IMG/VR virus record: IMGVR_UViG_3300023174_000063
Origin: a virus
Strand: one strand, 5' to 3'
DNA length: 64,000 bases
The notes beneath the pieces were generated by a model, which did not search any database, was not told where the DNA came from, and was given only the letters and a program-made list of their open reading frames with translations. Each line of letters starts with the position of its first letter. The stretch's first letter is position 1. The position numbers and the translations under genes were made by a program. Positions 8,805 through 43,158 of this stretch are shown piece after piece.

Positions 8805-9097
8805 GTGTTTCTAGATATAGAAGATCTTCTAGGATTAAAGCGGGAACCCAGCTGAGTACATCTAATATTAGTGCGCTAATTTACTCTAATGTCAGAGAGG
8901 GAAATATTACGACATTTAATTACGTCCTCAAAGAAGGAGAAAGACTCGATCAACTAGCTGGAAGATATTTGGGGAATGGTGATCTTTGGTGGGTTATTGC
9001 TGCTGCAAGTGGAATCGGGTGGATGTTGCAGGCAGCTCCAGGAACTAGAATTAAAATACCCGACAATGTCGGACAAATTATGTCGTATGTGAGTTAA
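8801..9097 (+). CDS. LysM-like baseplate wedge protein (gp53/GpX-like)
   Basis: YVLKEGERLDQLAGRYLGNGDLWWVIAAASGI...PGTRIKIP, the typical LysM/tail-X pattern. Confidence 0.85.
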   Translation: MSVSRYRRSSRIKAGTQLSTSNISALIYSNVREGNITTFNYVLKEGERLDQLAGRYLGNGDLWWVIAAASGIGWMLQAAPGTRIKIPDNVGQIMSYVS

Positions 9098-9099
9098 AA

Positions 9100-21446: not shown

Positions 21447-21544
21447 AATCTGAACCGCTTGTTCGGTGAGTTTTCTGACTAAAAAGTCAAAGTCGTATAG
21501 TTCTGTCATGTAGGGTTTTGTCAAACACTAACATAGGAGACTAT

Positions 21545-23605
21545 ATGTCATTTACAACAAAAATGAGACTCTCGCAGATGACCGGATCAATCGGTACAGG
21601 CGAAGGTCAGATTCGTGACGATCACAGCGCAGAAGTTTCTACAGCAATTGAGGCTGGTGATCTCGGCGTAATGCTAAGCCACATGGCTTCAGCAATTAAG
21701 CGCATCCACGGTGCAGACAGCTTCACAGAGGCTGCTGCCGGTAATTTCGAAATTGCTCTCTACGCACAGGACGCACTGTACGTCTCAGGCGCTGCTGAGT
21801 TTGCAGACAACATTCACGCTCTAATGAGCCTCGACGTTGATGGCGACATCACAGGCTCAAATTTGTCACTCTCGAGCAACCTCTCAGCCGTTGACGGCAC
21901 CTTCTCAGGTAACATCTCGGCCGTTGACGCCACCCTCTCGGGCGACCTCTCGGCTGTCAGCGGTACATTCTCAAGCAACATCTCGGCCGTCGGTGCAACA
22001 CTGTCGGCAGACCTTGCTGCTGTCAATGCCACACTTTCAGGCGACCTCTCGGCTGTCGACGGCACCTTCTCAGGTGACATCTCGGCAGTTGATGCGACCC
22101 TCTCGGGCGACCTCTCGGCTGTCAGTGGTACATTCTCAAGCAACATCTCGGCCGTTGGTGCAACACTGTCAGCTGATCTCTCAGCTGTCAATGCCACGCT
22201 TTCAGGCGATCTCTCGGCTGTCGACGGCACCTTCTCAGGTGACATCTCGGCAGTTGATGCGACCCTCTCGGGCGACCTCTCGGCTGTCAGTGGTACATTC
22301 TCAAGCAACATCTCGGCAGTTGGAGCAACATTGTCAGCAGACCTCGCTGCTGTCAATGCCACACTGTCAGGTGACCTCTCAGCCGTTGACGGCACCTTCT
22401 CAGGTGACATCTCGGCTGTTGACGCCACACTGTCGGGTGACCTCTCGGCTGTAAGCGGTACATTCTCAAGCAACATCTCGGCCGTCGGTGCAACACTGTC
22501 AGCTGATCTCTCAGCTGTCAATGCCACACTGTCAGGTGACCTCTCGGCAGTTGATGCGACCCTCTCGGGCGACCTCTCAGCCGTTGACGGTAACTTCTCA
22601 GGTGACGTTGTAATCACCGGTGATCTCACCGTCCAGGGAACAACTACAACACTCGACACACAGAACCTCCTCGTCGAGGATCCTATCGTTCTCTTCGGTT
22701 CGAATGCAGTTACATCGAACTCGAACGGCGGTATTGCAATCCTCTCGGGTTCTTCGGTCGCTGATCAGTCACTCGTCCTCGGCCGCGTTGCCAACGACGT
22801 GTGGGGTGTTGGTCGCAAGGACGTCGAGGGCGGCACAGTTACAACACTGGCCGACATGACACTCGTCGCTTTCCGCGCTGATAAGCTCGAGCTCGGCAGC
22901 GCTTCAGACTACATCCACGTCACAGGTTCGGACATGAACATCATCGCCGCTGGCGACATCATGATCGATCCTGCAGGTGGCGACGTCTTCTTCGACGCTC
23001 CTATCCAGCCCAAGTCCGGTGAGATTCACGATCTAGGTAAGGATGGCAATGCATGGCGCGACCTCTGGATGCGCTCCAGCGGAAAGTTGACATTCGGCGC
23101 CGGTGGTTCAAAGGGTGTTATCGAGCACGCCGTGCACGATGGCGCATTTGCAATCACAGTTCCCAGCGGCTCACTGGTCGCCGAGAACAAACTCTACGTT
23201 GAGAACATCATGGTCGCCAAGGACCAGGGTGCAGACCCTGCTTCACCCAACAGCGGCTACGGTGCATTCTACGTAAAGAATGACAAGCCTTACTTCAAGA
23301 ACGACGGCGGATCTGTTTGGGATCTAACAGCCGGTTCATCGTACTACAAGGCACAGCATGCTGTTACAGCTTCTGTTGCAGCCAACACATCTGTCGCCAT
23401 CGGCGCAGTCAATCACGACAATGCTGTTCCTGAGCACCTTGACGTTTACGTCAACGGTAACCTCCTGCTGTCGGGTGCACTCTCGGCTGGAAACGTTGCC
23501 TCTGGCGCTGACTACTCGATCGACGGACTCTCCGGCGCAGAATTCAAGTTCGCGTTCGGCCTCGAGCCCGGCGACGTCGTAGTCGTCAAGAAGATCGCTG
23601 TCTAA
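21545..23605 (+). CDS. Fibre-like structural protein with tandem 11-aa repeats
   Basis: Start placed at ATG 21545 (AGGAGA SD); post-repeat GDLTVQGTTTTLDTQNLLVEDPIV and C-terminal LDVYVNGNLL..DY..FKFAFGLEPGDVV are typical of phage fibre/baseplate-attached proteins. Confidence 0.75.
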   Translation: MSFTTKMRLSQMTGSIGTGEGQIRDDHSAEVSTAIEAGDLGVMLSHMASAIKRIHGADSFTEAAAGNFEIALYAQDALYVSGAAEFADNIHALMSLDVDGDITGSNLSLSSNLSAVDGTFSGNISAVDATLSGDLSAVSGTFSSNISAVGATLSADLAAVNATLSGDLSAVDGTFSGDISAVDATLSGDLSAVSGTFSSNISAVGATLSADLSAVNATLSGDLSAVDGTFSGDISAVDATLSGDLSAVSGTFSSNISAVGATLSADLAAVNATLSGDLSAVDGTFSGDISAVDATLSGDLSAVSGTFSSNISAVGATLSADLSAVNATLSGDLSAVDATLSGDLSAVDGNFSGDVVITGDLTVQGTTTTLDTQNLLVEDPIVLFGSNAVTSNSNGGIAILSGSSVADQSLVLGRVANDVWGVGRKDVEGGTVTTLADMTLVAFRADKLELGSASDYIHVTGSDMNIIAAGDIMIDPAGGDVFFDAPIQPKSGEIHDLGKDGNAWRDLWMRSSGKLTFGAGGSKGVIEHAVHDGAFAITVPSGSLVAENKLYVENIMVAKDQGADPASPNSGYGAFYVKNDKPYFKNDGGSVWDLTAGSSYYKAQHAVTASVAANTSVAIGAVNHDNAVPEHLDVYVNGNLLLSGALSAGNVASGADYSIDGLSGAEFKFAFGLEPGDVVVVKKIAV
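21881..22606 (+). repeat. Coding tandem repeat: 22 x 33 nt (11 aa), arranged as 4 x 165-nt super-repeats plus 2 units
   Basis: Unit cycle LSAVDGTFSGD / ISAVDATLSGD / LSAVSGTFSSN / ISAVGATLSAD / L[AS]AVNATLSGD. Confidence 0.95.
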
Positions 23606-26959: not shown

Positions 26960-28330
26960 ATGTCGAGCAATAATCTTGCAGTTCGAACAGTCGATGACTT
27001 TTTTGACCATGAATTGCGTGATTACGCAAAGTATGTAGTCCGTCATCGTGCAATTCCAAGTGTAATTGATGGCTTTAAGCCATCGCAGCGGAAGATTGCA
27101 CACACTGCCAATACTGTCTGGAAGACAGGCAACGAAAAGCCCATGAAGGTTTTTCAGCTCGGCGGCCTGGCAGCATCACAGACAATGTTCCACCACGGCT
27201 CTCTGGATGGTACAATCATTGGGATGACACAAGAGTTTAAAAACTCAATGTCAATCTTTCAAGGCATTGGCCAGTTTGGCTCTCTTCGGTCTCCCGAGGC
27301 AGGTGCTCCTCGATACGTTGGTGTTAAGTTCAATGAGAATTTTAGACTCCTATACCAGGACTTCGATCTTGTTGAGAAGCAGACCGAAGAAGGCGTCGAA
27401 ATCGAGCCTAAGTTCTTTCTGCCTATCTTGCCCACAGTTCTTTTGAACGGCGGAAGTGGCATCGCTGTAGGCTTCGCGACTAACATCTTGAATAGACATC
27501 CTGTGCATCTTATTGATGCTTGTCTTGATACGTTGAATGGCAAGTCTTGTACTACCTTGAAGCCATGGATTAACGGCTATGTGGGAGATATTGATCTAGT
27601 TCCGGGGACCCAAAAATCTTGGGTGCTGCAGGGTAAGTTCGATGTTAAAAATACTTCCACTGTAGAGATCACAGAGCTTCCACCGTCTTGGACGTACGAG
27701 AAGTATGAAGTGCTGCTTGATGGACTAGTCAATAAGGGCTTGATCCACTCCTATGACGACCATTCAGCTACGACACCGCACTATGTCCTGAAGTTTAATA
27801 GGCTGAAGCTAGCAGAGCTTATTCAGAAGAATAAGCTTGCAGATCTCCTTAAGATGTCAGAGCGTGAGACCGAAAATTTTACGACACTCGATGAGTCGGG
27901 TGATCTTAAAATCTTTGATACCGCTGAAGGCATCGTCGATTATTTCGTAAATTTTCGTCTGAAGTACTACGATATTCGACGTAGCAAGCTCATTGAGAAG
28001 ATCAACTCAGAGCTGAAGGTCATCGATAACCGTTGCAAGTTTATCGATGCGATTCTCTCAGAAACACTTGTCATTAGCGGTCGAAAGAGGGCTGAGATCG
28101 AAGCAGATCTTGTGAAGCTGCAGATTGACAAGCACGAAGACAGCTACAATTATCTGCTAAACATGGCAATTCACAGCTTGACACAAGAGAAGGTTAAAGA
28201 GCTGGTTGCATCTAAGCTTAAGAAGCAGAAGGAACTCAAGCAGATTGAATCAACAACAGGAAAGAGAATGTATGTCGATGACCTCCAGGATCTTCGCGCC
28301 AAGCTCATCAAGCAAGGTTACACTCCCTGA
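26960..28330 (+). CDS. Type IIA topoisomerase medium subunit (T4 gp52-like)
   Basis: RAIPSVIDGFKPSQRK; FHHG; GQFGS; GAPRY catalytic Tyr; GIAVGFAT; EITELP. Confidence 0.95.
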   Translation: MSSNNLAVRTVDDFFDHELRDYAKYVVRHRAIPSVIDGFKPSQRKIAHTANTVWKTGNEKPMKVFQLGGLAASQTMFHHGSLDGTIIGMTQEFKNSMSIFQGIGQFGSLRSPEAGAPRYVGVKFNENFRLLYQDFDLVEKQTEEGVEIEPKFFLPILPTVLLNGGSGIAVGFATNILNRHPVHLIDACLDTLNGKSCTTLKPWINGYVGDIDLVPGTQKSWVLQGKFDVKNTSTVEITELPPSWTYEKYEVLLDGLVNKGLIHSYDDHSATTPHYVLKFNRLKLAELIQKNKLADLLKMSERETENFTTLDESGDLKIFDTAEGIVDYFVNFRLKYYDIRRSKLIEKINSELKVIDNRCKFIDAILSETLVISGRKRAEIEADLVKLQIDKHEDSYNYLLNMAIHSLTQEKVKELVASKLKKQKELKQIESTTGKRMYVDDLQDLRAKLIKQGYTP

Positions 28331-28760
28331 AAACTGGTCTCCTCCTAGATCTCCTATCGGACTCATACAAGAAGATCTCTGGCCAAATGAATGGAAGATT
28401 CTTGTAGCATGTCTGCTGCTCAACCTCACGACACGCAAGCAGGTTGATGGCGTCATCTATGAGCTATTTAAAAAATACCCCACTCCGGAGGCCCTGGGAG
28501 CTGCAGGAGACATCGAATTGGAGGAGATGATCAAACCATTGGGTATGCAGAAGAAACGCTCTGCGACACTGCGGCGGTTCTCTAATGAATATCTCCAAAA
28601 GTCATGGAAGACTGCATCTGATCTTCACGGGTGTGGCAAATACGCAAATGACTGCTGGCGGATTTTTTGTCTAGGTGAGTGGCGTAGTGTTCAACCTAGC
28701 GATCACGCTTTAAACAAGTATGTAGACTACCTTAAGAAAGGAGATTCAATCGATGCCTGA
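28272..28760 (+). CDS. MBD4-like HhH-GPD mismatch DNA glycosylase (stand-alone catalytic domain)
   Basis: WSPPRSPIGLIQEDLW..WKILVACLLLNLT; KYP; KPLG; LHGCGKYANDCWRIFC..EW..V.P.DHALNKY matches the MBD4 glycosylase domain as I recall it; start codon uncertain (28272 or 28278). Confidence 0.85.
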   Translation: MSMTSRIFAPSSSSKVTLPENWSPPRSPIGLIQEDLWPNEWKILVACLLLNLTTRKQVDGVIYELFKKYPTPEALGAAGDIELEEMIKPLGMQKKRSATLRRFSNEYLQKSWKTASDLHGCGKYANDCWRIFCLGEWRSVQPSDHALNKYVDYLKKGDSIDA

Positions 28761-29559
28761 GGGACCTGAGGTGCGACGCTTTGGCGACGACTTGGCAAGA
28801 GAAATTTCAGGAAAGACACTTGTCGATGTCAAAGTGCTTACTGGACGATATCTCAAGAAGCCAATTAACGGAATCGAAGATTTTAAGGCGAGACTACCAC
28901 TTTCAGTTGTAGGCACCGGTGTTCACGGTAAGTTCTTGTACTGGATTCTAGAAGATTGCAATTTTGTTTTTAATACATTGGGAATGACAGGGCACTGGTC
29001 CAAGACGCCGGGTAAACACTCTAGAGTGGAGTTTAAGTTCTCAAGCGGAGAAAGTGTATTCTTTGAAGACACACGAAATTTCGGCACAATCTCTCTAGAG
29101 CGAGGCAAGAATAAGTTCTACAAGAAAATAAACAGTCTCGGTCCTGACATGCTGGTAGAAGATGTAACAGACGACGTTTTTGTCGACAGGCTCCAGAAGC
29201 ATCCTGACTGGCAGATTACAAGTGCCCTCATGGACCAGTCAGTAATCGCAGGCGTTGGCAATTACGTTAAAGCTGAAGCACTATACAGGTCGAATATATC
29301 ACCTCTGCGTGCTGTCAGGTCAATTACGCGGCAAGAAGCAATTCTTCTGAATAAATCAATTAAAGACATTCTGAGAGAGAGCTACAATGCCGGAGGCACA
29401 ACGGTCAAAGATTATCGGCGAATGGATGGCTCTTTGGGCGTGTACACATTCGATCTTCGTGTTTATAATAAGAAATATGATCCGGCAGGTAATCCTGTTG
29501 TCAAAACATTAACAGAAGATAATAGAACCACGCACTGGGTCCCTAACACACAAAAGTGA
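28753..29559 (+). CDS. Fpg/Nei family DNA glycosylase/AP lyase (zincless finger)
   Basis: N-terminal MPEGPEV; HGK; LGMTG; DTRNFG; LGPD; LMDQ..IAGVGNYVKAEALY; C-terminal RTTHWVP..Q without Cys ligands. Confidence 0.92.
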   Translation: MPEGPEVRRFGDDLAREISGKTLVDVKVLTGRYLKKPINGIEDFKARLPLSVVGTGVHGKFLYWILEDCNFVFNTLGMTGHWSKTPGKHSRVEFKFSSGESVFFEDTRNFGTISLERGKNKFYKKINSLGPDMLVEDVTDDVFVDRLQKHPDWQITSALMDQSVIAGVGNYVKAEALYRSNISPLRAVRSITRQEAILLNKSIKDILRESYNAGGTTVKDYRRMDGSLGVYTFDLRVYNKKYDPAGNPVVKTLTEDNRTTHWVPNTQK

Positions 29560-29806: not shown

Positions 29807-30175
29807 ATGTCAGATCGATTTGACGAAATGTACGACCAGCAACGTGATTTCAACCAGCTACTGCATGAGCATCGTGGACAGCCTGCATTTCCACTAGATC
29901 TCAAGACAAAGCAGAACCAGCAGTATTTGAAGTCTCTCACACATGAGTGCATGCATGAGCTTTTTGAAGCAAATCTCCTGCTGAAAAACAGCAAGAAGCA
30001 TCGTGCAACAATCGTCGAAGATTTTGATCGTGAGTCCTACAAGGAAGAGCTCTGTGATGCACTGCATTACCTCCTGGGTATTGTCGTGTATTCTGGCATT
30101 TCTAAGGAAGAATTTTTCGAGGCCTACATGAAAAAAGGCCAGATCAATGTTGATCGTATCAAGAGCGGGTACTAA
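29807..30175 (+). CDS. All-alpha dimeric dUTPase/MazG-like nucleotide pyrophosphatase
   Basis: HELFEA...K.H...YKEELCDALHY..: ExxE/EExD metal-binding pattern. Confidence 0.8.
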   Translation: MSDRFDEMYDQQRDFNQLLHEHRGQPAFPLDLKTKQNQQYLKSLTHECMHELFEANLLLKNSKKHRATIVEDFDRESYKEELCDALHYLLGIVVYSGISKEEFFEAYMKKGQINVDRIKSGY

Positions 30176-30194: not shown

Positions 30195-31154
30195 TTGTCT
30201 GATTCTAAGTTTGAGTCGCTTGTTAGTGCTCTGCTAGAGCAGCGTAAATTTTCAGATCTTTTCTATGACACCAAGAACATGTCTGAGTCGGAGCGAGAAG
30301 AGTCTTTGCGCCGACTAGCCTTGTGTGCACACACAGCTGTCTCAGACATCGTCTCTTCTGTCAACTTTAAGTCGCATCTCAAGACGCATCAGCATGTCGA
30401 CCATGCGAAGATGCTCTACAAGACAGTTGATCTTTTTAGGTACACATTGGCAGTACTCAATCTTTGGGATATTGACCCACAAAAGTTTGTAGATGCGTGT
30501 GATATCAAGAACAATTTTCTTCATATGCGTCACCGTTTAGATTCAGCGCCATGGGACGGTCGTCCTGTTGTTGTGTTTGATTGCGATGATGTAATTGCAA
30601 AGTTTAGAAGTCATTTTGATAATTTTCTCGAGAAGAAGTGGTCGATCCCACTAAACCCTGACTCTAACGAGTATTACAATAACGCAGGTCTTGTTGAGGC
30701 AGGTCTAAATCCCGAGATTGCATTTAGAGACTTCTTGAGCTCTGGGCAGATGCGAGAGCTTAAAGTAAATACAAATGTAGCAGACGCAATGAGAATTCTC
30801 TCTGATAGAGGTTACTGGATCCAAATTTTGACTGCTCGTCCTGCTGAGAGCCTTAATTGCTTCTATGACACATTTCACTGGATTGAAAAGAATGGAATTC
30901 CATGCAATGCCGTTGGATTTAGTTCTGAAAAGTACAGGTGGGTAAGCGAGCAACAGTTCTACATGGACGGCAAAATGGTCTGTGCAGTCGATGACTCTCC
31001 TAAGCATGCTGCCGAGTTTGCAGCGCATGGAGTGAAAGCCATAATGCCTGCTATGCCTTACAATGCACATGTCAAAAACTCTGACACGCTCGAGCGAGTA
31101 GACTTTTCTCTGCTGAGCGCTGATGAAATTGTCAAGCTTATTGTCGATCTTTAA
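30195..31154 (+). CDS. Fusion: degenerate MazG/dUTPase-like domain + HAD 5'(3')-deoxynucleotidase (NT5C-like)
   Basis: TTG start with AAGGAG; N-half parallels 29807 protein but lacks the acidic ligands; C-half has FDCDDVI, ILTAR, K, AVDDSP. Confidence 0.75.
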   Translation: MSDSKFESLVSALLEQRKFSDLFYDTKNMSESEREESLRRLALCAHTAVSDIVSSVNFKSHLKTHQHVDHAKMLYKTVDLFRYTLAVLNLWDIDPQKFVDACDIKNNFLHMRHRLDSAPWDGRPVVVFDCDDVIAKFRSHFDNFLEKKWSIPLNPDSNEYYNNAGLVEAGLNPEIAFRDFLSSGQMRELKVNTNVADAMRILSDRGYWIQILTARPAESLNCFYDTFHWIEKNGIPCNAVGFSSEKYRWVSEQQFYMDGKMVCAVDDSPKHAAEFAAHGVKAIMPAMPYNAHVKNSDTLERVDFSLLSADEIVKLIVDL

Positions 31155-31193: not shown

Positions 31194-31214
31194 ATTAAAA
31201 AACGAGGAGTAGTG

Positions 31215-32195
31215 ATGCCAATTAATCATGATCTAGAGCCGATTGTTCTTCCTATGGAGCTTAAGTTTGGTCGTCCTGTCAAGACAGAATATCACAATGC
31301 ACTTGATGCACTCAAGGTTGAGCTTGTTGATGCGCCTACTCGACAGCAGGCTTGGAATGTTGCTTGGCACTTTGTAAAAGCCACATGGGCAGATCGACCT
31401 GATATTGACCCGGGTAGCGCAACACCGCATGAACTCTCTAAGAATCTTGAGGATGTCTTTGGTGGCAGGACTCTTCCTGCTCCAATGGAGTGCCTAGGCT
31501 TCACCTTCCGGCTAAGCGGTCTATCCTTCCAGGACGTAACCCACATTATTCGTCACCGTGCTGGAACATTTGCGGCACAGTGTACGGGCGACAGAGACCT
31601 GAGAGATGACGATGCTGTAATTCCCGAGCCGGTGCAAAACTCGCCAGAGTTTCTCGAGCGCTGGAAGAAGATCGTCGATGAATCGAAGCAGCTTTATGCT
31701 GATATGACAGACTCGAAGGTCGTCTCGATGATGGATGCTCGCCTCATTCTTCCAAAGTGCATGACGTCTTTCTACTATATGCGTCTGCCACTCAAGGATC
31801 TCATCGGCTTTATCTACCAGCGCCAGGATAGGCAGATTCAAACAGCTGCCGACAATATCCTTGCAGTCAGAATGGCAGTTGAAGTTGCAAAGGTTTTGCC
31901 CGAGTTTACAGCTCTCGTCGACTTCAATAAGCCCGATATGCACTACATTAAGACATTCCGAGTCAAGGAGGGCGATAAGTTTGTATCTCGTGGTACAAAC
32001 CTCTACTGGCCTGAGCCCAAGAATGATAAGTTCGACTTTCACCCTGAGGACACGATCTATCAATGTAGGAGAGAAGAGCTTAATGGAACACACGGCGACG
32101 GTGAACAGAAGAAGTTCCTCCAGCACTGGAACAGCGGTGTCGCAGAGTTTGATGAGATTAAGACAAATTACGCATCATGGAAGGCAGGTAAGTAA
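31215..32195 (+). CDS. thyX: Atypical flavin-dependent thymidylate synthase (ThyX/Thy1)-like protein
   Basis: PMEC.GFTF; HIIRHRAGTFAAQCTGDR; DARLILP; GFIYQR; start moved to ATG 31215 after GAGGAG SD. Confidence 0.8.
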   Translation: MPINHDLEPIVLPMELKFGRPVKTEYHNALDALKVELVDAPTRQQAWNVAWHFVKATWADRPDIDPGSATPHELSKNLEDVFGGRTLPAPMECLGFTFRLSGLSFQDVTHIIRHRAGTFAAQCTGDRDLRDDDAVIPEPVQNSPEFLERWKKIVDESKQLYADMTDSKVVSMMDARLILPKCMTSFYYMRLPLKDLIGFIYQRQDRQIQTAADNILAVRMAVEVAKVLPEFTALVDFNKPDMHYIKTFRVKEGDKFVSRGTNLYWPEPKNDKFDFHPEDTIYQCRREELNGTHGDGEQKKFLQHWNSGVAEFDEIKTNYASWKAGK

Positions 32196-32659
32196 TGAGT
32201 TTCGAAAGAAAGCAGTCAGTCTATCTCGCTAGCGGTTGGTTTTCTCCCGACCAGGACAAACAGCTCACAAAGCTCGAGAAGCTCTTTGATGATCGTTCAA
32301 GCTGGATTAATCTTGCATCTCCTCGTCGAATCTTTGTCTGCCCGCCTGACGCATCTCTTGAGGTGCAAGACAATGTTTTCAAGGGCAACATGAAGCATAT
32401 CAGAGAGTGCGATTTTACTCTTGTCAATACAACTTATCGTGATATTGGCACGATTTGGGAAGCCGGCGCTGCATTTGCGCTTGATCGAAAGATCATTTAC
32501 TTTTGTGAGAACCTGCCTGCCGGCGCAAAGTTCAATCTAATGCTTTCACGAAGCGGAATTAAGGTTTGTACAACTTTTGAACAACTTGAAGACTACCTCA
32601 ATCGATGTGAAGCAGCAGGTGAGCTTCTATATGAGCCGTACGACAAGGAAATTGAGTGA
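32195..32659 (+). CDS. Nucleoside 2-deoxyribosyltransferase / dNMP N-glycosidase (NDT/DNPH1/MilB family)
   Basis: VYLASGWFS; SP; DIGTIWEAG (catalytic Glu); FNLML. Confidence 0.85.
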   Translation: MSFERKQSVYLASGWFSPDQDKQLTKLEKLFDDRSSWINLASPRRIFVCPPDASLEVQDNVFKGNMKHIRECDFTLVNTTYRDIGTIWEAGAAFALDRKIIYFCENLPAGAKFNLMLSRSGIKVCTTFEQLEDYLNRCEAAGELLYEPYDKEIE

Positions 32660-32713: not shown

Positions 32714-33697
32714 ATGAACGTTTTTATCACAGGACATAATGGATTTATCGCTATCAATCTTGTGAGCGCCTTCAAAAGACTTGGTCATAAAGTCATTAAT
32801 TTTAATGAGGCACGAAATCGTCTCATCACAAACAGCAAGGGAGAGCCATGTGTCTATCAAAATAGCGAAGATGCATGGCACCAATTTTTTCTAGACACAA
32901 AGACTGATGTTATTGTGCACAATGCAGCGCTAGTAGGCACTGATGTTGTGGCACTAAACCCAGAAGAATCTACACTGAGCAATGTCATGGGTACTCACAC
33001 AATTTGTCGCGTCGCACGAAAAGCTTCTATCCCTGTGTGCTATCTGGGCACATCAGTCATCTATGACACTCCTAAGTACCAGAACGCTGCGATTACTGAG
33101 AGAAGTGAACAGCGTCCAGGCACTTTTTATGGGGTACAGAAGTTGGCCGGAGAACATATAGTCATGTCAACTGCGTCTGAGTGGCTCATCATGCGACCAC
33201 TTTTTGCTTATGGCGGCTTAGGCGATATGAACTCTCTTCCTGCAAAGACATTTTATGCACAGCATCGAGGCGTTGCCAGCATTCCAATGTTTCTAGATCC
33301 TGAAAAGTCAAAAGACTACATGCATGTTGAAGACTTTTGTGATGCAGTTGCGCTAGGGTGCGATGCAGGTCTTTGGCAGCAAGATTTTAATATTTCAGCT
33401 GAGCTGCCACTCAAGACAGGTGAAATCGTCAACCTGATGTCGTCTGTTTGTGGCCATGACTTGGAAAAGATTATTAAGTGGCACCCAGAGACGGATTACC
33501 TTGGAAATCATATTCTTTCATCAGAAAAATTTAGGAAAGCTACTACTTGGACACCTAAATTTACATTAGCCAAAGGGCTGAAGCAGTCATGGGAAAGTAT
33601 CCTCGGCGCCTCTAGTCAGTACAACCCTCTGACGTATTTGGATGAAGCTGAAAAAAGAGGAGTGGATCTAGTTCAATATTTTCCAAAGAGTACGTGA
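32714..33697 (+). CDS. NAD-dependent epimerase/dehydratase (extended SDR)
   Basis: ITGHNGFIA; HNAA; GTSVIY; YGVQK (YxxxK); DYMHVED. Confidence 0.88.
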   Translation: MNVFITGHNGFIAINLVSAFKRLGHKVINFNEARNRLITNSKGEPCVYQNSEDAWHQFFLDTKTDVIVHNAALVGTDVVALNPEESTLSNVMGTHTICRVARKASIPVCYLGTSVIYDTPKYQNAAITERSEQRPGTFYGVQKLAGEHIVMSTASEWLIMRPLFAYGGLGDMNSLPAKTFYAQHRGVASIPMFLDPEKSKDYMHVEDFCDAVALGCDAGLWQQDFNISAELPLKTGEIVNLMSSVCGHDLEKIIKWHPETDYLGNHILSSEKFRKATTWTPKFTLAKGLKQSWESILGASSQYNPLTYLDEAEKRGVDLVQYFPKST

Positions 33698-36434: not shown

Positions 36435-39400
36435 ATGTCGTTTGACAGTGCAGCTCTACAAAATCTCTTGAAAATTTCACCGCCCAAGAACTTTACAGGG
36501 CTCCATTCACACTCGTCGTTTTCGACGTTCGATGGGCTCGGTTATCCAAAGGATCACATCGAGTTCATCACTAGCGAAGCACAGGGCATGGACTCGTGGG
36601 CACTGACTGACCACGGCAACGGCTCAGGCCTCGCACACGCTCGAGCTGCTGCTGTTAAGAAGCAAAAGTCAGGCAAGAAGTATCGCCAGCTTTACGGCGT
36701 TGAGTTCTATTTTGTTCCCTCACTTGATGAGTGGCAAAAGCAGATAGATGCCCACCAGCAGTCTGTAAAGGACGCAAAGTCTTCTCGCGAGGCACAGCTC
36801 CTCGCTGAGTCTCCCACAATCATCAAGCCTGCCGACGAGGATGATGAGCAGGGCGGTCACGTTATTGAAAACGAGGAGGAGACAAAGGAATCGAAGACAG
36901 ACAAGCCCGAGTGGAAGCGATACTACCACCTTGTTGTCATCGCCAAAAACAGAGTGGGTCTCGGCAATCTCTTCACGCTCGTAAAGAAGTCATTCAAGCA
37001 CGGCTTCTACCGATTCCCGAGAATCGATTATAAGATGTTGAAAGAGCACGGCGAAGGTCTTGTCGTCAGCACGGCATGTGTTGGCGGCCTTCCATCGTCG
37101 CTTATCTACCGCGAGTTTGCCGGCAAGTCTTTCAATGAACTTACGCCTGATCTCTTGACAGGACCTGCTGCAGAGGCTGCCGTCAAGAATATTCGCGGAC
37201 GTCTTGATAATATGGCAGATCGTTTTGTTGACTGCGTCGGCCGTGACAATTTCTTCCTGGAACTCCAGTTTAACGATCTTCCTGCACAGCATCTGACAAA
37301 TCAGTGTCTCATCGAGCTTTCGCAGCGCACAGGTCTTCCTCTTGTCGCAACGGCTGACTCACACTTCCCGTCTCCTGACAAGTGGCAGGCACGTGAGCTC
37401 TACAAGAAGCTTGGCTGGATTGGCGCAAAGCTTGACAAGACCATGATTCCCAAGCTCGAAGACATGAAGACGATGTTGTACCCGAAGAATGCCGAGCAGA
37501 TGTGGGAAGAGTTTAAGAAGGGCTACACACAGTACTCCTTCTATCAGGGTCATGAAGAACTAGTTCGTGATGCAATCGAGCGCACACACGATATTGCTTG
37601 GCAGAAGTGCGAAGACACCTGGGTCGACACCAGCGTCAAGCTCCCAATTCACCGCTTCGAGGACAAGACACCATTTCAGCGCCTTGTTGAGCTTGCAAAG
37701 GACCATCTCGCCCAGGAAGGTCTTGCTGACAATCCCGTCTATGTTGAGCGTCTCAAGGAGGAGCTTTCTGACATCAAGCATCTTGGTCATGAATCGTACT
37801 TCCTTACGATGTACGAGGTCTTCAAGCGCGCTGAGAAGCGTACGCTTATGGGTCCTGGTCGTGGCTCTGCTGCTGGTTCACTTCTAAACTTCCTGCTCGG
37901 CATCACACAGTTTGACCCACTTCCTTACGGTCTGCTTTGGGGTCGTTTTCTTGGGCGCTGGCGCGTCTCATATCCCGATATCGACACTGACGCTGCCAAT
38001 CGTGACATTCTTATTGATTCTGCACGAGAGCTCTACGGCGATGATGCGGTCATTCCAGTATCTAACTTCAATACTCTCAAGCTGAAGTCTCTGATCAAGG
38101 ACATCTCTAAGTTCTATGACGTGCCCTTCGAGGAGGTGAATGCCATGACTGGTCCCCTCCAGGACGAGGTCATGCCTCACGCTCGAGATGACGACCAGGA
38201 GAAGTCTGTGTTCGTCTTGAAGCACGAGGACTGCATGAAGTACTCAGAGGGCTACAGAACCTTCATGGAGAAATATCCTGACGTTGCGGCGCACGTAGAA
38301 ACGCTATTCATGGAGAATAGAAGCATCGGTCGTCACGCTGGCGGCGTCATTCTTGCAGATCCCACCGCGCTTGAGCAGTCAATGCCAATCATCAGTGTGC
38401 GCGGTGAACTCCAGACGCCGTGGACCGAGGGCATGAACTTTCGCAATCTTGAGGACAATGGATTCTTGAAGTTTGACTTCTTGGGTCTCACTCTCTTGAA
38501 GGACGTCGAGGACTGCATTGCTCGAATTCTGCGTCGTAGAGGCAATAAGAATCCCACCTTTGCGGACGTTAAGGCTTTCTTTGACGAGAACATTAACTGC
38601 CGCTATCACAAGCTTGACGACCCTGCTGTCTACAAGCACGTCTATCACCAGCGTCGCAAGACGGGCGTATTTCAGTTTACCAACGAGGGGGCTAGAAAGC
38701 TCTGTGAGGAGGCGCGCCCTTCATCCATCGAAGAGGTTGCAGCTATTACAGCAATTTATCGGCCGGGCCCCCTCAAGGCAAATGTGCACAGAAAGTACAT
38801 CAAGGCTCGTGAGGAGTTCGGCGCAGGTCGAATGAAGTTTGATCATCCTATTATTGAAGAAATTCTAGGACCTACTGCTGGATTCTTAATCTATCAGGAG
38901 CAGTTCATGGAGTTGGCTCGACGTCTGGGCGGCTTTACGAACGCAGAGTCAGATCAGCTTCGCAAGACTCTTGTTAAGAAGTCGCTGGATACTCTCGACA
39001 AGAAGGGTTCTGAGAAGGAGCTAGCAAAGCAGAAGTTCATCGAGGGCGCGCAGAAGCTCCACGGGTTGAGTCCTGCCATTACAGAGCCGCTCTGGCAGAC
39101 AATCGATTTCATGTCTGTATACTGCTTCAATAAGTCTCACAGCGTTTCTTATGCAATTGATTCTTACTACGCTGCATGGTTCCACACGCACTATGAGACT
39201 GATTGGCTGGCAACTTGTCTACAATCTGAGAATAATAATCCTGACGGTCTAGAGAAGACGATCACAGAGATTAAGTCGTACGGCTACAAGTTCATGCAAT
39301 CAGACATCAACTATTCAGGTGATGTGTGGATGTATTCTAATGAGCTCCAAGCATTTATTCCGCCTCTCAGCTCTGTCAAGGGTGTAGGAACCACTGCCAT

Positions 39401-40109
39401 GGAAGAAATCATGAAGAATCGTCCTTACAAGAATCTTGATGATCTTCTCTACGATGCGAGTGGTGAGTGGCGACACTCTAAGGTCAATAAGACTGCCATG
39501 CGATCACTCTGCCTTATCGAGGCTTTCTCCTCGCTTGAAGAGCTGAAGAGCGGTCGAATTAGAAATCATAGGCAGCTTTTGGCTCTCCTGACAGATGAGA
39601 AGAACTATGACACTCTTCGCAAGGGTCGCTTTGGATTGTCTCCAACACAGATCAAGAAGCTGCAGAAGAGCGGCGAGGTTGTTGTACCCATCATTGATAA
39701 GCTTATTGAGACTTACGAGGGGCTGCCCGACTGGAGTCGAACTGAGAAGCTTAAGAATCTCATGGAGATGACGTCCAGTGTCAGCAATGACCTGCTCTTC
39801 CCATCATCGTTAATGCGCAAAGTGAAAGAGAAGTCAGTGCCTTCAGTCTTTCAAATTCCAGGGGGTACAAAGGGCATTGGTTGGTTCTGCGTGACGGAAG
39901 TTCACCAGAAGTCAACCAAGAACGGAAAGAGCTTTTTGCGCCTTAGAATAATTGACAATGAGAATAATTCGACATGGCTGCGCTGCTGGGGCAAGTTTGA
40001 AGAAACACCGGATGAGTTCTCTCTCTGGATCGGTGAAATCGAAAATGACTCCAGCTGGGGCATGTCAACATCTTCCTGGAAGATTAAGCAGCTCAAGGCA
40101 TTTGAGTAA
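36435..40109 (+). CDS. dnaE: DNA polymerase III alpha subunit (family C)
   Basis: PHP motifs LHSHSSFS..DG, TDHG, DSH; GPGRGSAAGS; PDIDTD; GRHAGG; KFDFLGL; YQEQFM; FNKSHSVSY; C-terminal OB fold. Confidence 0.97.
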   Translation: MSFDSAALQNLLKISPPKNFTGLHSHSSFSTFDGLGYPKDHIEFITSEAQGMDSWALTDHGNGSGLAHARAAAVKKQKSGKKYRQLYGVEFYFVPSLDEWQKQIDAHQQSVKDAKSSREAQLLAESPTIIKPADEDDEQGGHVIENEEETKESKTDKPEWKRYYHLVVIAKNRVGLGNLFTLVKKSFKHGFYRFPRIDYKMLKEHGEGLVVSTACVGGLPSSLIYREFAGKSFNELTPDLLTGPAAEAAVKNIRGRLDNMADRFVDCVGRDNFFLELQFNDLPAQHLTNQCLIELSQRTGLPLVATADSHFPSPDKWQARELYKKLGWIGAKLDKTMIPKLEDMKTMLYPKNAEQMWEEFKKGYTQYSFYQGHEELVRDAIERTHDIAWQKCEDTWVDTSVKLPIHRFEDKTPFQRLVELAKDHLAQEGLADNPVYVERLKEELSDIKHLGHESYFLTMYEVFKRAEKRTLMGPGRGSAAGSLLNFLLGITQFDPLPYGLLWGRFLGRWRVSYPDIDTDAANRDILIDSARELYGDDAVIPVSNFNTLKLKSLIKDISKFYDVPFEEVNAMTGPLQDEVMPHARDDDQEKSVFVLKHEDCMKYSEGYRTFMEKYPDVAAHVETLFMENRSIGRHAGGVILADPTALEQSMPIISVRGELQTPWTEGMNFRNLEDNGFLKFDFLGLTLLKDVEDCIARILRRRGNKNPTFADVKAFFDENINCRYHKLDDPAVYKHVYHQRRKTGVFQFTNEGARKLCEEARPSSIEEVAAITAIYRPGPLKANVHRKYIKAREEFGAGRMKFDHPIIEEILGPTAGFLIYQEQFMELARRLGGFTNAESDQLRKTLVKKSLDTLDKKGSEKELAKQKFIEGAQKLHGLSPAITEPLWQTIDFMSVYCFNKSHSVSYAIDSYYAAWFHTHYETDWLATCLQSENNNPDGLEKTITEIKSYGYKFMQSDINYSGDVWMYSNELQAFIPPLSSVKGVGTTAMEEIMKNRPYKNLDDLLYDASGEWRHSKVNKTAMRSLCLIEAFSSLEELKSGRIRNHRQLLALLTDEKNYDTLRKGRFGLSPTQIKKLQKSGEVVVPIIDKLIETYEGLPDWSRTEKLKNLMEMTSSVSNDLLFPSSLMRKVKEKSVPSVFQIPGGTKGIGWFCVTEVHQKSTKNGKSFLRLRIIDNENNSTWLRCWGKFEETPDEFSLWIGEIENDSSWGMSTSSWKIKQLKAFE

Positions 40110-40167: not shown

Positions 40168-41133
40168 ATGTTCATAATGCTGAACTTGAAGTGCATTACT
40201 ATTGAGGGCCCTGACTGCGCCGGCAAGAGCTCTCTCTATAATGATATTCATCGAGAAACTAGCTTTAGATGGAATATTCAAGACAGAGGTCAGCTAAGCA
40301 TGGTTTGCTATGCTAGACTCTATGAACGAGGTAGTGAAATAGTTGATCATTGGCGCGCAGAACTTCATGAGTACCTTAAAAATCTAAATCAACGTCTAAT
40401 TGTGCTTCTGCCGCCTCTTCGTGTGCTACACCAGCGCCTGGAGTCACGAGGCGACCCCATGCAGAATGCAGAGTCCCTGTCTAAACTTTACGAGATATTT
40501 GATGACGAGCTTAAGATTTTGCACGCTGAAGATCTGCCTAATGTGTTGGTTATTAGAGGCGAAAATTCCCTAGATGAAAACGTTAAGCATTGCCTGTCAT
40601 GGTTGGCGCATGCGGGCATTTCCACTGCTAGAAATATTGCCAGCGACGTAGAGGCTGCAGTATTTGCATCACCTAAGAATGAAATATGTGGTTTAAATTT
40701 TGAACTCAATTTCAAGAGCGGCACCGCCGAGTTTCAGGCGCTGGAGAATCCAGCAGTAATGCAGTATCTGCCAGAAGAGGTGTATTACTCTGAAATACTG
40801 TCAAAAGTTTTAAAGAATATTGACGACGAAATCAATGGTAGAAATCCTTACTCACGCCCTGAGAACCCGCGGAGTACGCGCCGTTTTATCTTTGCGCAAG
40901 ATAGCTGCATTTCTACTATTCATACAATGATTCGCGACGATTCGATGACAATGAAGGTCTACTGTAGATCATCAAATGTTACCAATACATTTCCCCATGA
41001 TCTAGGATTTATCTGCTATCTTTTCACTAGAGTTTATCATCATTTATTTCACCGTACGCTATGGCGACCAACAAATTGCTCTCTGCGAGTAGAGATTGGA
41101 TCTGCACATTTACCCGCAATGGCGGGCCACTAA
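40168..41133 (+). CDS. Fusion: dNMP (thymidylate-type) kinase + truncated thymidylate-synthase/dCMP-hydroxymethylase-like domain
   Basis: ITIEGPDCAGKS, DRGQLS..Y, LESRGD (kinase); STRRFI..DSCISTIHTMIRD..MKVYCRSSNVTNTFPHD...GSAHL (TS fold); start 40168 or 40177. Confidence 0.75.
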   Translation: MFIMLNLKCITIEGPDCAGKSSLYNDIHRETSFRWNIQDRGQLSMVCYARLYERGSEIVDHWRAELHEYLKNLNQRLIVLLPPLRVLHQRLESRGDPMQNAESLSKLYEIFDDELKILHAEDLPNVLVIRGENSLDENVKHCLSWLAHAGISTARNIASDVEAAVFASPKNEICGLNFELNFKSGTAEFQALENPAVMQYLPEEVYYSEILSKVLKNIDDEINGRNPYSRPENPRSTRRFIFAQDSCISTIHTMIRDDSMTMKVYCRSSNVTNTFPHDLGFICYLFTRVYHHLFHRTLWRPTNCSLRVEIGSAHLPAMAGH

Positions 41134-41152
41134 TATTACTGGGAGTAACGCT

Positions 41153-42178
41153 ATGCATGTTTTAGTCACAGGTGGCGCAGGTTTTATTGGCAGCAATCTT
41201 GTTCACGCTCTTGTCCAAAAAGGCTGGATCGTCGACGTTATTGATGATTTAAGCAGTGGTAATTTAGATAATCTTGCAGGTCTAGAGACAAGGTTTTTGA
41301 CGACTAATATCCTGCATTTCTATGAGGAGAATGTAGAGTCAGGTGACCATAAAAAAGTTCGTTTTATTACTGGAGACTTTGCAAATCTCAATGTTCTTCG
41401 ACGCATAGAGGCTGGAAAATATCGCTATATCTTCCATCTAGCTGCAGTACCTAGAGTTGGTTTTAGTGTTCAATTTCCTGCAGAAACCGCAGAAACTAAT
41501 CTTTTAAAGACAATCAAGCTTTTTGAATCTGCTTCAAAGTCTGGATCTTGTCGTGTTATTTTCTCTTCGTCATCTTCTGTGTACGGCAACGCATCTGTCA
41601 GACCCACGCCTGAGTCCATTACAAAGCACCCGAGGTCGCCATATGCGCTACAGAAACTACACTGCGAAGATTATGCACGTCTTTTTAGAGAACTTCACGG
41701 ATTAGATTTTGTTGCGCTTCGATATTTTAATGTCTATGGGCCTCGACAGTTTGGCAACTCTCCTTACGCAACCGCCATCTCAGCTTGGTGCACTGCAGTT
41801 CACACAGGAAAGCCGCTTCGAAGCGACGGCGACGGCACACAGTCTAGAGATCTCACGTATGTCGATGACGTAGTAGAAGCAAATATTAAGGCAGCATTGG
41901 CTGGAGCATCATGTTCAGGAGAGAGCTATAATATTGCTGCCGGTAAGCCTGTTTCAAATCTCAAGATTCTCGAGGCGTTTCGAGATCGTTACGGAGATAA
42001 AGTCACTATAACAAAAGCACCTTGGCGCCCCGGCGACGTGATGCATACAGAGGCCGACCCTATGAAGGCACGGCTACAACTAGGATTTACGTGCAGTGTA
42101 GACTTTGACACTGGTCTGCGCAAGACATTTGAATGGTGGGATAATATTGTGCGCCTGGAGGAAGAAAATCATGCTTGA
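41153..42178 (+). CDS. NDP-sugar epimerase/dehydratase (GalE/WbpP-like SDR)
   Basis: VLVTGGAGFIGS; HLAA; SSSSVYG; SPYALQK; LRYFNVYGPRQ; GDGTQSRDLTYVDDVV. Confidence 0.92.
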   Translation: MHVLVTGGAGFIGSNLVHALVQKGWIVDVIDDLSSGNLDNLAGLETRFLTTNILHFYEENVESGDHKKVRFITGDFANLNVLRRIEAGKYRYIFHLAAVPRVGFSVQFPAETAETNLLKTIKLFESASKSGSCRVIFSSSSSVYGNASVRPTPESITKHPRSPYALQKLHCEDYARLFRELHGLDFVALRYFNVYGPRQFGNSPYATAISAWCTAVHTGKPLRSDGDGTQSRDLTYVDDVVEANIKAALAGASCSGESYNIAAGKPVSNLKILEAFRDRYGDKVTITKAPWRPGDVMHTEADPMKARLQLGFTCSVDFDTGLRKTFEWWDNIVRLEEENHA

Positions 42179-42743
42179 TGAATTTACAGACCCAGAATTT
42201 ATTATTTTTACAGGACCCATGTGGGGGTCTAAAACAACGAGAATGTTGGCAGCTGTCGATAGATATCGATATCAAAAGCGCAGCATTGTTGCTTTTAAGC
42301 CCGTGATGGATGCTCGATATTCAGAACAAGAGATTAGGACACACTCGGGGGGCAGTCTTCCTGCTGTAGGTGTTAATACAGGGCATGATATCGAAGAGTA
42401 TCTGAGACAACTGGCAGTTAAGACTGATGTTGTAGCAGTCGATGAGGCATTCATGATCGATGGGTCTGCTGAGACACTTGTAAGACTCTTTAGGTCGGGC
42501 AAGACAATTGTTGTCTCTTCTCTCCAGCTTTCCGCTAGCGGCAACGTTTTTACGGAGATTAGAGACATGATGCCATGGGCAACTCGCATTGAGGTTTGCC
42601 CAGCAGTCTGCCCATTAACAGGCAGAGATGCTTACTACACGCATCGCAAAGTAGATGGGCTTAGTGAAATCACTGTAGGAGGCTCTGAGCTCTATGAGCC
42701 TAGGTGCTGGCGCTACCACTCTTATATGAACTTGCGAGACTGA
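42171..42743 (+). CDS. tdk: Thymidine kinase
   Basis: TGPMWGSKTT; FKPVMDARY; VAVDEAF; AVC; VGGSELYEPRC. Confidence 0.88.
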   Translation: MLDEFTDPEFIIFTGPMWGSKTTRMLAAVDRYRYQKRSIVAFKPVMDARYSEQEIRTHSGGSLPAVGVNTGHDIEEYLRQLAVKTDVVAVDEAFMIDGSAETLVRLFRSGKTIVVSSLQLSASGNVFTEIRDMMPWATRIEVCPAVCPLTGRDAYYTHRKVDGLSEITVGGSELYEPRCWRYHSYMNLRD

Positions 42744-42744
42744 T

Positions 42745-43158
42745 ATGACACAGAGAGTTCGTCCAAGTTGGGATAGTGTTTGGATGAAGATGGCTGAGAC
42801 AATTGCGCAGCGGTCACACGATAATCGCTGTCAAGTTGGCGCTGTTGTAGTGACGAGCGACAACACGCAAGTGCTGTCAGTCGGTTATAACGGAAATTAT
42901 GCAGGAGGGCCTGATTGCTCAGAATCAGAAGAACCAGGCATGTCAGGACTTTTGCATGCAGAAATTAATGCTCTCCTTAAACTTGATTACAACAATCCTA
43001 AGAAAAAGATTTTGTATGTAACAATGTCACCTTGCGCAATGTGCGCTAAGGCAATTGTCAATGCCGGCATCAATGAAGTAGTCTACTCGCTAGTCTATAG
43101 AGATCTCCAGTGTTTTAAGATTTTAGATGACGCAGGTGTTATTATAAGAAAAATTTAA
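42745..43158 (+). CDS. dCMP deaminase
   Basis: VGAVVV..VGYNG; HAEINA; SPCAMC. Confidence 0.92.
   Translation: MTQRVRPSWDSVWMKMAETIAQRSHDNRCQVGAVVVTSDNTQVLSVGYNGNYAGGPDCSESEEPGMSGLLHAEINALLKLDYNNPKKKILYVTMSPCAMCAKAIVNAGINEVVYSLVYRDLQCFKILDDAGVIIRKI

Follow-up and report, generated by a model that had tools for sequence, protein, structure and literature searches.

Does a gene that carries the fold of a flavin-dependent thymidylate synthase (FDTS, ThyX) still make thymidylate once the residues around its substrate have been exchanged? This question is raised by a 64,000-nucleotide stretch of the virus record IMGVR_UViG_3300023174_000063 (hereafter the window), which is a portion of the genome of a large uncultured tailed phage and has nearly all of its genes on the + strand. 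At 31215-32195 (+) the window encodes a 326-residue ThyX-like protein, here called ThyXL, which Pfam, a structure model and structure matches identify as a rewired ThyX paralogue (clade I). An earlier note, made from the sequence alone, had described a changed active-site signature in this gene and had proposed a flavoenzyme with a different substrate or cosubstrate. What it observed has been confirmed by the sequence, by conservation of the motif among homologues, by the fold of the model and by a clade in a phylogenetic tree. ThyXL belongs to an abundant, essentially virus-only family and is probably not the phage's housekeeping synthase of deoxythymidine monophosphate (dTMP); its sequence suggests a product other than dTMP. 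When 20 kb of the window were compared by megablast with a phage collection there was no match, and hence no close cultured relative in that collection.

Fold and active site of ThyXL

The coding sequence is preceded by a Shine-Dalgarno sequence (GAGGAG, 31203-31208, +) located 6 nt 5' of the ATG at 31215, its homologues begin with the same MP(I/K)N, and the TAA stop codon occupies 32193-32195. The protein matches Pfam Thy1 (PF02511) with 55.2 bits against a gathering threshold of 24.8, over profile positions 47-191 only. An AlphaFold2 model built from 97 homologues (mean pLDDT 95.8) matched ThyX family chains only, with a Foldseek E-value of 1e-10 and VIA-align Z scores of 16-17 (root-mean-square deviation, rmsd, 2.3-3.2 Å over 200-214 residues); the matches include the ThyX proteins of Mycobacterium tuberculosis, Thermotoga maritima, Corynebacterium glutamicum, virus PBCV-1 and Helicobacter pylori, and also PolB. 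In the comparison with T. maritima ThyX, which the earlier note had proposed, residues 29-312 of the model lie on residues 5-220 of the chain with about 200 residues aligned, and the fold is shared. Given these ranges, helix 299-323 of the model (32109-32183, +) is apparently the counterpart of the C-terminal helix of canonical ThyX. The additional residues that had been described as a long C-terminal extension do exist, but most of them are located elsewhere, in an insertion of about 60 residues before the last helix (residues ~240-298; 31932-32108, +). The model, the VIA-align ranges and conservation mark this insertion as clade-specific; it is modelled as a beta-hairpin with loops, and N262 and P266 are conserved within it.

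Residues were mapped by HMMER alignment of both the single protein and a 97-sequence profile to the ThyX chains of the PDB, and the two maps agree; the conservation values below refer to 96-97 family members. The segment HIIRHRAGTFAAQCTGDRDLR (residues 110-130; 31542-31604, +) contains the RHR-x7-CTGDR motif that had first drawn attention to the gene, including the RHR that in canonical ThyX binds the flavin phosphates (R113-H114-R115, with R113 invariant and R115 conserved in 95%). Also kept are E92 (Glu58; 92%), R176 (31740-31742, +; T. maritima Arg147; 96%) and R203 (31821-31823, +; T. maritima Arg174, M. tuberculosis Arg199; 98%), the latter followed by D205 (Asp176) and Q209 (Gln180; 67%). 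The segment TLPAPMEC, likewise found where it had been reported (residues 86-93; 31470-31493, +), is aligned with the canonical H-x-[ST]-x-x-E-H. It has L87 at the site of the folate-stacking His53 (Leu in 86% of the family), A89 at the site of the Ser/Thr that contacts flavin adenine dinucleotide (FAD), and C93 at the His59 site. Further replacements are F105 at the M. tuberculosis Arg87 site, H110 at the Gln75 site and K194 at the M. tuberculosis Arg190 site. Counted from RHR without gaps, C123 takes the place of the canonical Ser (S88 in T. maritima, S105 in M. tuberculosis), G125 that of the Arg (R90/R107) and D126 that of the Tyr (Y91/Y108), with R127 two places on, in agreement with the earlier description of a Ser changed to Cys and an Arg moved by two residues. 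R127 and R130 are new conserved arginines of this substrate loop, which has one residue more than that of T. maritima ThyX. One HMMER alignment gave an alternative register, with T124/G125 on S88/G89, D126 on R90 and R127 on Y91; the S-x-R-Y that canonically follows RHR-x7 is kept in neither.

According to a review of FDTS structures (PMC6514825), the substrate of M. tuberculosis ThyX, deoxyuridine monophosphate (dUMP), is stabilised by Arg95, Arg199, Arg87, Ser105 and Arg107, the FAD phosphates are held by RHR, Ser71 and Arg190, and Tyr108 closes over dUMP C5 and flavin N5 as a lid against solvent. On the basis of these roles, ThyXL can be read as having kept the flavin-holding residues and the two dUMP arginines that come from the flavin-bearing subunit, whereas the three residues contributed by the other subunit and the Tyr lid are replaced. 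To judge from the alignments, it is the change of the Tyr lid to Asp126 and of Arg87/Ser105/Arg107 to Phe105/Cys123/Gly125 that is telling, more so than the Ser and His changes on which the earlier note had based its case. Its argument from Ser carries little weight, as the S88A and S88C mutants of T. maritima ThyX have been crystallised (PDB 3g4a and 3g4c) and Cys123 is conserved in only about 69% of the family, other members having S, T, A or G. Koehn and colleagues reportedly found in 2009 that both mutants stay active. The signature Ser is probably non-catalytic and Cys123 is probably not an essential nucleophile. As for the His, T. maritima H53 is said to stack the pterin of folate (Koehn and colleagues, 2012). 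An H53A mutant structure with folate bound is nonetheless on record (title of PDB 4gtf), and the missing His, to which the earlier note also appealed, is therefore no proof that folate use has been lost.

Clade, host range and coexistence with canonical ThyX

The sequence RHR-x7-CTGDRDL is present in all 120 closest homologues (76-92% identical). A HMMER search of 1.84 billion cluster representatives returned only 313 matches at E <= 0.001, so few that the majority of canonical ThyX proteins seem not to reach this threshold. In about 110 representatives of full length, the kept arginines are repeatedly accompanied by Leu at the His53 site, C/S123, G125, D126, D128, R130, Y161 and D166. The family is found in phages from water, gut and soil and comprises more than 1000 clusters at 90% identity, which keep their full length. 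The ThyX phylogeny that had been suggested as a check for a QCTGDR clade (maximum likelihood, quick search) does contain a well-supported one: ThyXL lies within a monophyletic clade of 51 rows (SH-aLRT 99) marked by His110, C-[TS]-G-D-[RK] and Leu at the His site, and this clade includes the protein of Geobacillus phage GR1. Its sister group, for which the available loci are short contigs only, has Gln110 and C-[TS]-G-[DE]-x-D-R, and proteins with S-x-R are placed elsewhere in the tree. Another atypical ThyX is the protein annotated as 'thymidylate synthase' in Carpasina-type phages such as Xanthomonas phage XcP1 (1363-2121), in which RTR replaces RHR, T-S-R is present and the His53 site lacks a His.

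The earlier note had said that occurrence of the motif in cellular sole thymidylate synthases would count against its interpretation. A scan with the pattern [ST]F[SA]A[QV][CG]T[GA]DR over 185,579 prokaryote species, with one genome per species, gave three matches, all on contigs of metagenome-assembled genomes (MAGs), and no cell was seen to rely on the motif. Two of the three are in a clear phage context with a DnaE 60% identical to that of the window, a fusion of a kinase with a thymidylate synthase (TS) domain, a terminase and a homing endonuclease; on the third, the cassette of nucleoside 2-deoxyribosyltransferase (NDT), ThyXL and nucleotidase is retained. One clade member is on a MAG contig from roe-deer jejunum. 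In the nearest clusters of the ESM Atlas 86-97% of the members are viruses, and the clade, with almost no cellular members, is in essence confined to viruses. Since the rewired signature defines a well-supported and nearly virus-only clade, it is a family trait and not decay.

The NCBIfam equivalog model for thyX (TIGR02170) gives ThyXL 31.7 bits, which fails the cut-off of 87.9, and gives 174.2 bits to the canonical paralogue of a relative of this phage (G001). Canonical ThyX and the rewired type are found together in 17 of 29 relatives in IMG/VR, i.e., in all four large ones (200-284 kb) and in 13 of 25 further fragments (19-61% complete), and the sole relative that is 100% complete encodes both. 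The canonical paralogues of the four large relatives have 222-267 residues and score 129-174 bits with Thy1 (115-179 bits over all relatives), while their rewired counterparts have about 330 residues and score 66-70 bits. The four canonical paralogues that were read carry H-x-[ST]-x-x-E, in the form HKHTSTLEH or GHETPFE, and RHR or KHR-x7-S-x-R-Y. ThyA was not found in any of these relatives. Two Thy1 genes are also present on a contig that is more distantly related. In the relatives G005 and G004 canonical ThyX is encoded about 10-17 kb upstream of ThyXL, in G005 right after the ribonucleotide reductase gene. In the window the ribonucleotide reductase gene is followed by other genes, with a GC-rich open reading frame (ORF) of 695 residues (21518-23605; 53% GC against about 43%) that has pentapeptide/bactofilin-like repeats.

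Nucleotide-pool genes linked to ThyXL

In the lineage of the window the gene order is MazG-like pyrophosphatase, NT5C nucleotidase, ThyXL, NDT in 79 of 82 loci, at ThyXL identities down to 55%. In the window itself these are an all-alpha dNTP pyrophosphatase (dUTPase_2/MazG-like; 29807-30175, +; Pfam dUTPase_2 26.9 bits; phrog_12184), a 5'-deoxynucleotidase with an N-terminal domain and a HAD-type NT5C domain at residues 123-296 (30195-31154, +; Pfam NT5C 27.5 bits), ThyXL, and an NDT of nucleoside type (32195-32659, +; PF05014 49 bits; 6evs E 1e-11). As had been noticed before, the last two are coupled by TAATG (32193-32197, +), in which the last base of the ThyXL stop is at the same time the A of the NDT start codon (ATG, 32195-32197). 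The catalytic residues Y10, D83, E89 and N114 of NDT are invariant in a 44-sequence alignment, and a C-terminal I-E is conserved. Its closest solved structure, 6evs, is a true nucleoside deoxyribosyltransferase, which the N-terminus YLASGWF also resembles, and comparison with MilB, BlsM and DNPH1 gave no match at E <= 1. It presumably also lacks a phosphate loop of the Rcl/DNPH1 type.

Synteny within one lineage is weak proof of a functional link, and loci of distant members, at 35-48% ThyXL identity, were therefore compared. NDT stands beside ThyXL in every distant context examined, with the gene order shuffled. In a GR1-like contig (L095) the order is NDT, HD YfbR-like nucleotidase, RNase H, a small ORF, ThyXL, a 209-residue ORF, a small kinase and DnaE; in L097 it is dUTPase_2, NDT, HD nucleotidase and ThyXL; in L098 it is NDT, HD nucleotidase, ThyXL, dUTPase_2, DnaE, kinase-TS fusion and dCMP deaminase. 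In L099, the gut MAG contig, NDT overlaps ThyXL, genes for an HD nucleotidase and for a Tmk-like kinase follow, and a terminase is encoded close by; in L100 the order is NDT, ThyXL, a 315-residue ORF and HD nucleotidase. The matches to Tmk-like kinase in L095 and L099 are weak. The nucleotidase is thus of HAD type in the lineage of the window and of HD YfbR-like type in all five of these contigs. This non-orthologous replacement indicates that the nucleotidase activity itself is the selected trait. A metagenomic protein of 551 residues (P0146) has a domain like glycosyltransferase family 2 (GT2) ahead of its ThyX-like domain (22.1 bits, a weak match below the Pfam cut-off of 23.3), a fusion which hints at a link with glycosylation.

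Downstream of the cassette, own-lineage loci usually encode a short-chain dehydrogenase/reductase (SDR) and DnaE. In the window an NDP-sugar epimerase/dehydratase of the SDR type comes right after NDT (32714-33697, +; Pfam Epimerase 95.6 bits; in 62 of 82 loci), a second SDR gene is present at 41096-42178, and the two flank DnaE. The window DnaE is a single uninterrupted ORF (36435-40109), while in relatives it is split by inteins or an HNH gene (L002, 12644-18729; L095, 9186-14260). There follow a dNMP kinase fused to a miniature TS-fold domain (40168-41133, +), a thymidine kinase (42171-42743, +; NCBIfam thymidine kinase model, E 7.5e-33) and a dCMP deaminase (42745-43158, +; Pfam dCMP_cyt_deam_1 83.9 bits). 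A set of dCMP deaminase, thymidine kinase and dNMP kinase is typical of phages that replace a base with 5-hydroxymethyluracil (hmU) or 5-hydroxymethylcytosine (hmC), such as SPO1, phi-e and T4. The gene set of a replacement pathway is found together in the window, namely dNTP pyrophosphatase, ThyXL, the dNMP kinase-TS fusion and dCMP deaminase, in addition to the nucleotidase, NDT and thymidine kinase. Just upstream of the module are HhH-GPD and Fpg/Nei glycosylases (28206-29559), with Fpg within 6 kb of ThyXL in 49 of 82 loci. A possible role of these glycosylases is the repair of modified pyrimidines after deamination or oxidation. Other genes of the window encode a tape-measure-like protein, PolA, a gp32-like single-stranded DNA-binding protein, RecA, DnaB, ribonucleotide reductase, a two-gene topoisomerase II, GroEL, superoxide dismutase and a sigma factor.

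The miniature domain of the fusion has about 150 residues, in which CISTIH, CRSSN and PHD can be read in this order, and is a weak match to the dCMP hydroxymethylase of T4. It has Asn at the site of ThyA D169 and Asp at that of N177, a combination described in a 2026 paper as the signature of a flavin- and O2-dependent 5-hydroxy-dCMP synthase (PMC13326640); in L002 and L098 the D169 site of the homologous domain is occupied by Asp instead. In phage GR1 the fusion is represented by two genes, one for the kinase and one for the mini-TS, with ThyXL between them, and a nitroreductase-family flavoprotein, ThyXL and a 151-residue mini-TS (QRSSN) stand in a row at 7286-9424, the last two overlapping by one base. 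With the queries used, no mini-TS was found beside ThyXL in L095, L099 or L100, which weakens the idea that it is an obligate partner of ThyXL.

Proposed function, alternatives and known systems

The reading we prefer, and in which we place modest confidence, is that ThyXL is a neofunctionalised, virus-restricted ThyX paralogue which performs the base-modifying step of a pool-remodelling module and yields a C5-modified pyrimidine. Because the ThyX fold, RHR and two pyrimidine-holding arginines are kept, ThyXL has most likely retained the stacking of a uracil-type (deoxy)nucleotide or nucleoside on its flavin; the flavin, the substrate and the product are all predictions from sequence. In such a module the dNTP pyrophosphatase and the 5'-deoxynucleotidase would remove the canonical pyrimidine nucleotide, NDT would recycle its deoxyribose, thymidine kinase and dNMP kinase would re-phosphorylate the product, and the phage's own DnaE would incorporate the modified nucleotide. 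The methylene would pass from methylenetetrahydrofolate to flavin N5 and on to C5, as in ThyX. With Asp126 in place of the Tyr lid, water could then trap the exocyclic methylene to give a 5-hydroxymethyl pyrimidine and not thymidylate.

We favour 5-hydroxymethylation among the possible chemistries, at low confidence for this one chemistry taken alone. It is favoured because the enzyme set of the window matches that of the classical hmU/hmC phages. It is also favoured because the change of the Tyr lid to Asp126 parallels the route by which hydroxymethylases arose in the ThyA family, where an acidic residue stands in place of a water-excluding hydrophobic one (PMC13326640). Leu87 need not abolish folate use, since the H53A mutant still binds folate, and obligate O2 chemistry is disfavoured by the clade member on the roe-deer jejunum contig. 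Taken more broadly, and at somewhat less than even odds, ThyXL could be the first ThyX-fold family with a non-methyl product, a virus-only flavin-dependent C5 hydroxymethylase or hydroxylase with NDT recycling the deoxyribose of the excluded nucleoside. The earlier proposal of a flavoenzyme with another substrate or product, tied to NDT, is therefore partly upheld: a different function is supported by the paralogues, the failed equivalog model, the virus-only clade and the linkage to NDT, and not by the Ser and His arguments or by the supposed extension. That ThyXL and NDT catalyse consecutive steps, as was also suggested, is plausible.

Several points weigh against the preferred reading. Flavin binding is predicted for a protein that has A89 at the FAD-contacting Ser site (Ser/Thr in most clade members) and Lys at the Arg190 site. 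Loss of the folate-stacking His may mean that folate is not used, which would favour hydroxylation, reduction or a role as a redox helper. The phosphate cradle has been rebuilt, and the substrate could be something other than a dNMP, as D126 and D128 could suit a nucleoside or a metal-bound di- or triphosphate; R127 and R130 could still bind phosphate. No canonical ThyX was found within the 64-kb window, which is part of the genome only. In the complete genome of phage GR1 neither ThyA nor canonical ThyX was found, only the rewired type and the mini TS-fold ORF, and ThyXL could still be the thymidylate synthase there. Where canonical ThyX does coexist with ThyXL, it fits poorly with full replacement of thymine.

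The alternative that survives best is still an unlikely one. It takes ThyXL as an O2- and flavin-dependent C5 hydroxylase (making 5-hydroxy-dUMP or 5-hydroxy-dCMP), or as a flavin carrier or reducer for the mini-TS, with the NADPH-oxidase half of the ThyX reaction kept and the folate half lost. This would account for the absence of the folate-stacking His throughout the clade, and a flavin-supplying partner would suit both the gene order in GR1 and a mini-TS domain that is without the parts of the TS fold for holding a cofactor. The 5-hydroxy-dCMP synthase signature of the window fusion points in the same direction (PMC13326640), and a glycosylated hydroxy-pyrimidine would fit the sub-cut-off GT2-like fusion and the linked SDR sugar genes. 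It is countered by the gut member, as O2 is scarce in the jejunum, by the inconstancy of the mini-TS, and by the Asp at the D169 site in close relatives. A pure reductase role would moreover leave the conserved pyrimidine-binding arginines and the linkage to NDT and nucleotidase unexplained.

That ThyXL is a divergent viral isozyme which converts dUMP to dTMP with a remodelled substrate loop seems to us improbable. The fold, a Thy1 score above cut-off and the retained RHR, R147 and R174 equivalents would all be expected of it, the signature Ser of T. maritima ThyX is reportedly dispensable and the H53A mutant still binds folate, GR1 has no other ThyA or ThyX, and the window has a dCMP deaminase and no canonical TS. 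It is opposed by the canonical ThyX alongside it in more than half of the relatives, including the only complete genome, by the score far below the equivalog cut-off, by the loss of Arg87, Arg107 and the Tyr108 lid, and by the near absence of the motif from cellular genomes. The linkage is, furthermore, to enzymes that destroy or swap nucleotides and not to folate or TS partners. We regard as similarly improbable an enzyme acting on nucleosides or other non-monophosphates, which would modify the deoxyuridine or deoxycytidine released by the nucleotidase and pass it to NDT and thymidine kinase. Three dUMP contacts of one subunit are replaced and the conserved D126 and D128 enter the loop, nucleosides are products or substrates of both constant neighbours (the NDT being of nucleoside type), a thymidine kinase is encoded nearby, and T. 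maritima ThyX has been crystallised with deoxyuridine (title of PDB 5ioq). However, R127 and R130 are conserved in the loop and could hold a phosphate, R176 is kept, no TS-like enzyme of nucleoside type is known, and the register of the loop is ambiguous. A catalytically dead nucleotide-binding regulator or scaffold, for which the absence of several canonical active-site residues might speak, is highly improbable given that the replacement positions L87, G125, D126, D128, R130 and Y161 are strongly conserved, that the catalytic arginines are 95-100% conserved among proteins only 20-45% identical, and that the clusters stay full length.

If ThyXL is a C5 hydroxymethylase or hydroxylase, modified phage DNA would arise by a new and widespread route, shared by giant phages of aquatic habitats, gut phages and the cultured Geobacillus phage GR1. 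For a nucleoside deoxyribosyltransferase, too, participation in the modification of phage DNA would be new. Because the family is so abundant, there may be many uncultured phages whose DNA contains an unrecognised base, with effects on sequencing, restriction and evasion of defence. GR1 (OK896991) encodes ThyXL together with NDT, an HD nucleotidase, a glycosyltransferase and a mini-TS; it thus carries the module and is in culture, which makes a direct test at the bench possible.

With the known ThyX/FDTS enzymes (EC 2.1.1.148; TM0449, Rv2754c; PF02511) ThyXL shares the fold, a core of similar size, RHR and the equivalents of Glu58, Arg147, Arg174, Asp176 and Gln180. It differs from them in having Leu for His, C-T-G-D-R for S-x-R-Y and the insertion before the last helix, and in being virus-only, failing the equivalog cut-off and coexisting with canonical ThyX in related genomes. 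A precedent for a recruited second copy is PolB of Streptomyces cacaoi (PDB 4p5a/4p5b). This neofunctionalised ThyX paralogue serves polyoxin biosynthesis by methylating UMP/dUMP, and its structure matches ThyXL as well as true ThyX does (Z 16.4, rmsd 2.4 Å, 203 residues). PolB is, however, cellular, belongs to an antibiotic gene cluster, makes a methyl product and is no closer to ThyXL in sequence than ordinary ThyX (profile E 2e-11). It also keeps the canonical Ser/Arg motif. In the biosynthesis of mildiomycin a ThyA-like CMP hydroxymethylase (MilA) is followed by an N-glycosidase of the NDT family that acts on hydroxymethyl-CMP (MilB) and then by sugar chemistry. The phage locus likewise pairs a TS-like enzyme with a member of the NDT superfamily, but its NDT is of the true deoxyribosyltransferase type and its partner has the ThyX fold. 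The same logic as we propose here, a TS scaffold retuned to a non-methyl C5 product, is found in T4 gp42, the SPO1-type dUMP hydroxymethylase, RB69 gp48 and DLP3 gp80 (PMC13326640). These ThyA-family hydroxymethylases and hydroxylases are also set among genes for dNTP pyrophosphatase, dNMP kinase, deaminase and sugar transfer, but they have the ThyA fold, which is unrelated to ThyX. No ThyX-fold enzyme of DNA modification was described in the literature searched, in which subscription journals are mostly not covered. To our knowledge all known pre-replicative pyrimidine modifications of phages begin with ThyA-fold enzymes, and a ThyX-fold counterpart would, if the proposal is true, be a second, independent enzymatic origin of modified DNA bases.

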